NCBI RefSeq assembly: GCF_024298765.1
Contig: NZ_CP101210.1
Length of the DNA stretch: 64,000 nt
Reading direction: 5' to 3' (one strand)
Source of the DNA: Escherichia coli
Lineage (GTDB): Bacteria; Pseudomonadota; Gammaproteobacteria; Enterobacterales; Enterobacteriaceae
The notes beneath the pieces were generated by a model. That model did not search any database, was not told where the DNA came from, and saw nothing but the letters and a program-made list of their open reading frames with translations. Shown piece by piece: positions 18,299-19,072 of this stretch (within the stretch, counting starts at the first letter, position 1; the number at the start of each line of letters is the position of its first letter). Both the position numbers and the translations under genes were made by a program.

Positions 18299-19072
18299 TC
18301 AAAAATTAGGTGAGTAACGGACCGGGGACATAGCTCCTTTTTTTCTTAATTCATCTGGTATTTTTTTTCCAAGATAAAGATTTGCTATTTCAGGTGGGGC
18401 TTCTCGACCTTCAAAACCATAGCGAGAACTTTGTGTTGCCTCAAAGTCAGGATCCTCGTCCCAGTATTTCATCGTAGGGAAATTTTCACGTGTTGATTTG
18501 AGCCATTTATCAGCAATGAAAACCCCTCGAACGATCCCCCTTACAGTAGCAAGAATGACTTCTGCTTGGCTGGCGCGAGAGACATTAATGCGCCAGCTAA
18601 ATCGAACCGCATCATAAAGCTCTGAATCCTTTGCACTTCTGTTAACGGAAATCATTAATGCTTTATGATGAAATATTATGGTTTCGGGTTGATATGTTGC
18701 TATCAACTCTTTGACATGCGCGGCGCCGAATTCATTGCTGCCAGCACCATTCATGATATTCGTTAACCCAGGGTAGGCATCAATAAGTGCAGCTTCAACT
18801 TCGTACGCCGTCTTTTCATCAGTCATTCCGTGTCGATGGATGACATGGATAACTTCAAGTCCTGCTAACCTTATTTCTCTAATTTGCTTTAGCTTGTTGC
18901 TCAGTAACTCGTCATCATCAGTCGCTGCCACTTCACCGCGCATATGGGCAAATACGCGGTTACCTTTGCCTTTCCCTACATAGAAGGTGCTTCCGTCCCT
19001 CGGATCAATCAATCGGTATACATACCAGCCAAGGTGTTCAATTACTCCAGAAGGAAACTCAGTAATATCCAT
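18299..19072 (-). CDS. GIY-YIG nuclease-domain protein with an uncharacterised C-terminal domain (257 aa)
   Basis: The N-terminal ~110 aa carry WYVYRL...[16 protein letters not shown]...YEVEAALID...N, i.e. GIY and YIG-type hairpin motifs, a conserved Arg and a catalytic Glu. The C-terminal ~130 aa have no motif I recognise. Visibly lower GC than the flanking phage genes. Confidence 0.75.

Follow-up and report, generated by a model that had tools for sequence, protein, structure and literature searches.

What does the gene at 18299..19072, on the minus strand of a 64,000-nucleotide (nt) stretch of Escherichia coli DNA (contig NZ_CP101210.1 of RefSeq assembly GCF_024298765.1; the whole stretch is referred to here as the window), encode? 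A sequence-only reading of this locus had recognized a GIY-YIG nuclease domain in the N-terminal part of the protein and described the gene as an uncharacterized candidate for a new nuclease effector, which might act as a single-gene anti-phage nuclease, as a homing endonuclease, or as a functional analogue of Vsr. Profile and structure-database searches lead us to assign the gene, with a probability of roughly 0.96, to PD-T4-3, a modification-dependent anti-phage nuclease; its activity in the source strain would be that of a 98%-identical protein. The PD-T4-3 family reportedly came out of a functional screen in 2022, in which it was first recovered from E. coli ECOR68. It has been renamed CMoRE, for Cytosine Modification Restriction Endonuclease (PMC12923530), and we use this name below.

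Identity of the gene

Exactly one open reading frame (ORF) was listed at 18299..19072 on the minus strand of the window; it begins with ATG, is full length, and encodes 257 amino acids followed by a stop codon. The PADLOC model for PD-T4-3 (PDLC04031) matched the protein with an E value of 4.7e-140, aligning residues 1 to 256 with positions 1 to 255 of the 256 in the profile, and PHROG 5356 matched it from end to end. A phmmer search of the PDB returned 9U75/9U8D (E = 2.4e-171) and 9U7U/9U7Z (E = 7e-150), each covering residues 1 to 257 of the window protein and each deposited under the name "GIY-YIG domain-containing protein." The first pair represents the protein of E. coli O157:H7 and the second that of APEC O1 (Liu et al., Nat Commun 2026, PMC12923530). 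Identity to the O157:H7 protein was 98.1%, with substitutions at 5 of 257 positions (T51A, E55D, I133T, Q169K, and N197H) that are all conservative or of a surface type, while identity to the APEC O1 protein was 84.8%.

These searches place the whole protein in a family that is already known and has been characterized structurally and biochemically. The protein itself is thus not novel, and the description of it as an uncharacterized, candidate new effector does not hold. The PADLOC check of the locus that the same reading had proposed gave a full-length match to PD-T4-3, and its first hypothesis, a single-gene anti-phage nuclease of the kind recovered in E. coli screens, proved to be the right one.

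The exact sequence of the window protein is found on at least 1,000 contigs, and a published survey of the family counted 274 systems in 84 genera (PMC12923530). RefSeq and UniRef nevertheless still label the protein "LEM-3-like GIY-YIG domain-containing protein" or "hypothetical protein," and NCBIfam holds no model that matches the window CMoRE protein. With public annotation of CMoRE lagging in this way, readers who work from sequence only will keep flagging the gene as unknown.

Domains, published activity, and predicted mechanism

The N-terminal nuclease core comprises residues ~15 to 110 (18743..19030, minus strand). Here Pfam family PF22945 (LEM-3_GIY-YIG) matched residues 28 to 110 with an E value of 2.2e-14 and 54 bits (cutoff, 27), while the classical GIY-YIG model, PF01541, reached 13.9 bits, under its cutoff. 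The motifs are in place (WYVYRL at residues 16 to 21 and YEVEAALID at residues 90 to 98, followed by N105 and N108), in agreement with the earlier impression of an apparently intact core. In the crystallized proteins, the nuclease domain is structurally nearest to that of UvrC but has an additional tyrosine, giving a "GIYxY-YIG" arrangement of Y17, Y19, and Y31, and active-site mutants lose all activity (PMC12923530). Y17, Y19, Y31, and R39, together with the Glu residues of YEVEAAL, are the same in the window protein and in both crystallized proteins, and R80, V92, L96, and Y127 are likewise identical. Judging from motif position, the catalytic residues are likely to be R39 and E91/E93.

Two other features of the published structures bear on how the nuclease domain is controlled. 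A 15-residue acidic insert between helices alpha2 and alpha3 covers the active site, and a mutant in which four consecutive acidic residues of this insert were changed to alanine (the 4A mutant) was more active, cut ordinary DNA, and was toxic (PMC12923530). The corresponding run in the window protein is D52-D53-D54-E55 (18908..18919, minus strand), to which we assign an autoinhibitory role from the published mutant; the sequence is DDDE in APEC O1 as well and DDDD in O157:H7. The enzyme is a tetramer, formed as a dimer of head-to-tail dimers, and both the V92S/L96S mutation and deletion of the beta1-beta2 loop disrupt its assembly and abolish defense (PMC12923530). The interface residues V92 and L96 are conserved in the window protein, and residues 1 to 50 are identical to those of the O157:H7 protein.

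The C-terminal domain, residues ~125 to 257 (18302..18700, minus strand), contains Y127 and is assigned as modification sensing from its near-identity to the crystallized domain. The sequence-only reading had found nothing that it recognized in this region and had guessed at a module that reads modified bases. Both observations stand: no Pfam or NCBIfam model matched residues ~125 to 257, and the authors of the structures found no sequence or structure homologue of the domain; their crystal structures show it bound to 5-hydroxymethyl-dCTP, with Y127, through its main-chain oxygen, hydrogen bonded to the 5-hydroxyl of 5-hydroxymethylcytosine (5hmC) (PMC12923530). Residues 125 to 257 of the window protein are the same as in the O157:H7 domain except at 3 positions, with Y127 retained. 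The window protein and the CMoRE proteins of O157:H7 and APEC O1 are therefore alike in length, two-domain architecture, tyrosines, acidic loop, interface residues, and Y127.

The activity of the crystallized enzymes has been described in detail. When expressed from their native promoters in BL21, the O157:H7, APEC O1, and Klebsiella genes reduced the plating of T2, T4, and T6 by about 5 orders of magnitude, and cells carrying CMoRE survived at a multiplicity of infection of >1 (PMC12923530), which points to direct defense and not to abortive infection. In infected cells, the T4 genome was depleted and the host genome was untouched. With Mg2+ or Mn2+, purified CMoRE degraded T-even DNA and PCR products containing 5hmC or glucosylated 5hmC (5ghmC), while DNA with cytosine or 5-methylcytosine (5mC) was neither bound nor cleaved in electrophoretic mobility shift and nuclease assays (PMC12923530). 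T4(hmC) remained sensitive, whereas T4(C) escaped. The cleavage site was mapped to CN11/N9G, with 2-nt 3' overhangs, and two 5hmC sites were needed (PMC12923530). Cleavage of 5hmC and 5ghmC DNA, sparing of cytosine and 5mC DNA, and protection against T-even phages would be expected of the window allele as well, given its 98% identity to the O157:H7 protein.

Two further, independent studies point the same way. A Capnocytophaga homologue with a reported identity of 48%, PD-T4-3Capno, breaks down modified T4 DNA and leaves T4-GT7 DNA undegraded, and mutation of its active site abolishes defense; it is distant in sequence, and at high enzyme concentrations it reportedly also cuts Mu DNA, which carries carbamoylmethyl-adenine (PMC12366544). 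In the native host E. coli NILS69, deletion of PD-T4-3 results in sensitivity to Tevenvirinae, and the system is one of only two that are active there (bioRxiv 2024.12.20.629700).

Comparison with other nucleases helps to delimit what is particular to CMoRE. The closest structural relative of its nuclease domain is the N-terminal GIY-YIG domain of UvrC (PDB 1YCZ; PMC12923530), and the closest profile relatives are the LEM-3/ANKLE1-type domains of PF22945. All of these share the catalytic Arg and Glu, but CMoRE differs from UvrC and LEM-3/ANKLE1 in the extra tyrosine Y17, the 15-residue acidic insert, the modification reader, and its biological role. Enzymes of the PvuRts1I/AbaSI family join a Vsr-like/PD-(D/E)XK nuclease to an SRA-like reader, whereas CMoRE combines a GIY-YIG nuclease with a reader that, by its description, has a different fold. 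A functional comparison of this family with CMoRE has been drawn (PMC12923530). Its members likewise recognize two (g)hmC residues ~20 to 22 bp apart, cut between them to give 2-nt 3' overhangs, and spare cytosine and 5mC.

Taken together, the published data suggest the following mechanism for the window protein. The C-terminal domain would bind 5hmC or glucosyl-5hmC at the domain edge, so that a CMoRE dimer could read two modified cytosines ~21 bp apart, and the GIY-YIG domain, with its three tyrosines and its catalytic Arg and Glu, would cut both strands between them at CN11/N9G. The acidic loop (DDDE at residues 52 to 55) would lie over the active site and prevent action on ordinary DNA, yielding only to modified DNA that is bound tightly enough to outcompete it. 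Unmodified or Dcm-methylated (5mC) host DNA would be spared, and T-even phage DNA would be degraded early in infection while the cell survives.

Prophage-end setting and cassette edges

The CMoRE gene was present at ≥95% nucleotide identity in 837 of 5,426 complete E. coli genomes (about 15%). A megablast search of 50,697 phage records in INPHARED returned no match to it; at the level of identity that megablast detects, its known occurrences are in prophages of bacterial genomes and not in sequenced phage isolates. We compared eight genome contexts, consisting of seven fetched loci and the window. In all eight, CMoRE lies directly past the prophage tail-fiber genes. The left neighbor is usually pinE, but it is an acyltransferase gene in two genomes, in one of which a remnant of pinE lies between, and a lambdoid tail-fiber assembly gene in one. 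The neighbor on the far side varies: an EcoRII-type restriction-modification (R-M) pair, an AraC regulator, another restriction endonuclease, or a BCCT transporter. A constant tail-fiber slot with a variable far-side neighbor fits a self-sufficient single-gene system, and among 822 carrier genomes the R-M pair stands alongside in only 243.

The location had been read from the sequence as the cargo slot of a prophage, and these contexts bear that out, as does the e14 element of K-12, which has mcrA in the equivalent slot. McrA (EcoKMcrA; fetched locus L007, 6686 to 8413) is, like CMoRE, a single-gene, type IV modification-dependent nuclease, and it is the last gene after pinE and before attR. 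It differs from CMoRE in having an unrelated sequence and fold, being an HNH nuclease for 5mC and 5hmC in specific contexts, and it is encoded on the opposite strand, where no hairpin flanks it. The same slot thus carries different modification-dependent nucleases in related prophages. In O157:H7 TW14359, CMoRE occupies the same prophage-end location after pinE as it does in the window, but the right sides differ: the EcoRII-type R-M pair beside ssrA in the window and a tRNA-like 3' fragment with an AraC regulator in O157:H7.

In the window, the left neighbor is a pinE-type serine invertase of the Pin/Gin type (17651-18241 or, more narrowly, 17687..18241, plus strand; Pfam Resolvase and HTH_7, annotated as pinE by RefSeq in a near-identical genome), which belongs to the prophage tail-fiber switch. 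On the far side of the R-M pair, the chromosomal landmark beside the island is ssrA, the transfer-messenger RNA gene (22390..22752, minus strand; found by ARAGORN, with the tag peptide ANDENYALAA, and annotated by RefSeq), which is followed by smpB. The CMoRE gene and the R-M pair have a G+C content of ~43%, compared to 51% for the window. Many complete E. coli genomes (O103:H2, O121, and others, from cattle, pork, and human sources) match the window at 99.9% identity over the 5.2 kb from pinE to ssrA. Strain 2015C-3163 has a CMoRE gene 100% identical to that of the window, in a prophage with an HK97-type head, a contractile tail, e14-like YmfQ/StfP/pinE genes, and an integrase ~37 kb away.

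Several observations concern the same prophage and its surroundings. Inverted repeats of 20 nt at 15749-15768 and 17606-17625 (95% complementary) flank an invertible tail-fiber segment (15769-17605). Relative to the near-identical 2015C-3163, the first ~1 kb of this segment is inverted, and nothing in that genome corresponds to 16792-17605; in the orientation found in the window, the tail-fiber ORF at 15465-16115 is intact through the crossover site. The closest complete genome (fetched locus L006) has insertion sequences of the IS3 family in the same prophage and in the adjacent island (2703-3916 and 19854-21067), one of them splitting a DUF968 gene, as well as a second integrase-bearing island beyond the prophage integrase. 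These insertions and the second island suggest that islands lie in tandem near ssrA and that the prophage is partly defective. Elsewhere in the window, at 50240-50434, tRNA-Ile(GAT) and tRNA-Ala(TGC) lie 43 nt apart; they are the usual spacer tRNAs of an rRNA operon and are unrelated to CMoRE.

Alignment of five genome contexts delimited a conserved CMoRE cassette of ~1.03 kb, consisting of the gene and ~200 bp upstream, which starts at ~18240 and ends at 19270-19287. The left edge is the point at which homology between PC-NDM34, a context that lacks pinE, and the other contexts begins. A strong hairpin lies there, between the converging pinE and CMoRE genes (18241..18279), with a folding free energy of -23.6 kcal/mol on the plus strand (z = -4.6) and -17.9 kcal/mol on the minus strand (z = -2.85). 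It is probably a bidirectional terminator. A terminator scan did not call this hairpin, which has no T run, and found no canonical terminator. The same flanking hairpin was also looked for after pinE in K-12 e14 and was not found there, indicating that pinE 3' ends do not generally carry it.

The right edge (19257..19287, plus strand) was located by alignment and consists of a 14-nt core, GGTCTCGAAAACCG, at 19257-19270, and a degenerate repeat of the left hairpin's 5' arm (AAACCGTAG...GTATGC) at 19266-19287, which, taken as 19265-19287, does not fold in the window (z = +0.78). APEC 102026 and PC-NDM34 have a complete second hairpin at this edge. We take the core to be the anticodon arm of tRNA-Ser(CGA), a reading of our own and not the output of a tool. 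In O157:H7 TW14359 and strain 98201 (fetched loci L002, 7955-8010, and L004, 7956-8010), the core runs into a sequence resembling the 3' end of a tRNA gene, and no complete tRNA lies nearby; the junction looks like one of the attR type. Beyond the core, the window has unrelated sequence and the R-M genes. A second copy of GGTCTCGAAAACCG was sought at the integrase end of the 2015C-3163 prophage and was absent within 27 kb, and ARAGORN found no tRNA there. The partial hairpin duplication marks the boundaries of the cassette and of the prophage end. Of the flanking hairpin duplication claimed from the sequence, then, the strong left hairpin is confirmed, but the right copy in the window amounts to a partial 5' arm that is unfolded. 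Two genomes carry, in the conserved region upstream of CMoRE, an 81-bp fragment annotated by RefSeq as a "capsid protein" pseudogene (fetched loci L003, 7986-8066, and L005, 7985-8065), which is probably an erroneous annotation across the promoter and attachment-site-like region.

A discrete cassette of this kind, found behind different left neighbors (pinE, an acyltransferase gene, and a lambdoid tail-fiber assembly gene) and bounded by a hairpin that in some genomes has a second copy on the other side, is what might be expected of a free-standing GIY-YIG homing endonuclease, which would cut an unoccupied target and so spread its cassette, the hairpin repeats bounding the mobile unit. A weak match to phrog_314, a PHROG annotated as homing endonuclease, points in the same direction (E = 0.0038, confined to the GIY-YIG region). 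We nevertheless consider homing very improbable. Pfam searches with E values up to 1 revealed no NUMOD, IENR1, helix-turn-helix, or zinc finger module such as a homing enzyme would use to bind DNA, and what the C-terminal domain recognizes is a modified base and not a sequence. The published enzyme depends on modified cytosine and spares unmodified DNA and the host genome, properties that cannot be reconciled with homing into unmodified bacterial or prophage DNA, and the right-hand repeat in the window is a decayed half-copy that does not fold.

The region upstream of the gene (19073..19274, minus strand) travels with CMoRE in every context of the five-genome alignment and presumably holds its native promoter. 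Nothing that was found contradicts the assignment to CMoRE, but some observations bear on how active the window gene would be. A scan of 19073..19274 for consensus sigma-70 promoters found none on the minus strand, and the APEC O1 gene gave weak protection from its native promoter while the O157:H7 and Klebsiella alleles gave strong protection (PMC12923530). The substitutions at T51 and E55 fall in or beside the autoinhibitory loop, although E55 is also the residue of APEC O1. The missing promoter consensus and the weak defense of APEC O1 would also suit a silent or decaying passenger of a defective prophage, inactive in the source strain, as would the frameshifted tail-fiber pseudogenes (by annotation) and the insertion sequences in the prophage of the closest complete genome. 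We regard such a passenger as improbable. The ORF is full length, and every named functional residue is intact. The exact protein is widespread on sequenced contigs, as noted above, and the gene has been kept at 95 to 100% nucleotide identity across the 837 genomes. Furthermore, PD-T4-3 is active in its native host NILS69, and the strong protection given by the O157:H7 and Klebsiella alleles was obtained from native promoters.

Methylase and EcoRII-type endonuclease beside CMoRE

The neighbors on the right are those named in the sequence-only reading. A Dcm/M.EcoRII-type C5 cytosine methyltransferase gene (19437..20912, plus strand; Pfam DNA_methylase and DNA_meth_N; NCBIfam PRK10458, 927 bits) is transcribed divergently from CMoRE, and its product shares 69% identity with K-12 Dcm. 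The longest ORF starts at 19437 (491 amino acids), and RefSeq places the start 42 nt downstream, at 19479 (a coding sequence of 1,434 nt); the similarity to K-12 Dcm does not start until residue 41. The partner of the methylase is an EcoRII-type type II restriction endonuclease (20947..22161, minus strand; Pfam EcoRII-N and EcoRII-C; PADLOC REase_II, E = 2e-234).

The block formed by CMoRE, the methylase, and the endonuclease (18240-22200 in the window) is contiguous in 243 complete E. coli genomes. It lies behind at least three left neighbors (pinE, the acyltransferase, and the lambdoid tail-fiber assembly gene), and its right neighbor is ssrA or, once, a P4-like primase. The R-M pair was found at ≥99% identity in ~262 records, plasmid copies being only ~80% identical. 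The chromosomal variant of the R-M pair is thus almost always beside CMoRE, yet only ~30% of CMoRE carriers have it. Enrichment beside C5 methylases, R-M systems, and prophage ends had been proposed as a check in the sequence-only reading; the prophage-end location was constant in the eight contexts compared, but this C5 methylase and R-M pair accompany only a minority of carriers. The pair is a frequent and not an obligatory neighbor, and the methylase is not part of the CMoRE system. Homology between contexts breaks at ~19274-19287, inside the intergenic region between CMoRE and the methylase, which indicates that the divergent arrangement is a juxtaposition without a shared control region. 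We also considered CMoRE as a third component of the EcoRII-type type II R-M system and rejected this, because ~70% of the genomes with CMoRE have no adjacent R-M genes and because CMoRE alone defends BL21 and K-12.

The divergent position beside a Dcm-type methylase without a vsr gene overlapping it was the basis for the suggestion that the protein is an analogue of Vsr, nicking T:G mismatches that arise by deamination of 5mC at the CCWGG sites of the adjacent enzyme. The near-constant presence of CMoRE beside the chromosomal R-M pair (243 contiguous genomes against ~262 R-M records) could be read in the same way, but we consider this role extremely unlikely. In the published assays, which covered cytosine, 5mC, 5hmC, and 5ghmC DNA, CMoRE showed no binding to or cutting of DNA that was unmodified or carried 5mC, and it makes double-strand cuts with 2-nt overhangs, not nicks at mismatches. 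It has no sequence similarity to Vsr (BLASTP against K-12 Vsr, E = 2.3; no match to the Vsr Pfam family). The methylase is absent from beside the gene in ~70% of CMoRE-bearing genomes (822 versus 243 genomes), and the homology break described above leaves no conserved regulatory region common to the two genes. Moreover, 5,367 of 5,426 complete E. coli genomes contain vsr. A dcm-vsr pair is thus almost certainly present in the host as well, and the missing function that such an analogue would supply probably does not exist.

If CMoRE is the modification-dependent nuclease that its relatives indicate, it can coexist with Dcm-type methylation, since it is blind to 5mC, and the two neighboring systems may be considered together. 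It is possible, but on the whole rather doubtful, that CMoRE is co-inherited with the chromosomal EcoRII-type R-M pair as a three-gene block and that, in addition, the ~1.03-kb cassette is an exchangeable unit between the hairpin copies and the tRNA-Ser-like attachment core. The cassette would then move between prophage ends by recombination at the hairpin repeats or at the core. Such a block might reasonably be expected to provide layered cover, with EcoRII cutting unmodified CCWGG DNA and CMoRE cutting the hmC and ghmC DNA that escapes EcoRII.

For the family, this locus adds little new biology, a protein that differs at five residues having been solved structurally and biochemically by January 2026. 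Of the roles proposed from the sequence, the first was right, and the other two can be dropped. For E. coli, a nuclease directed against T-even phages at a prophage end in ~15% of complete genomes bears on the choice of T4-like phages for therapy.

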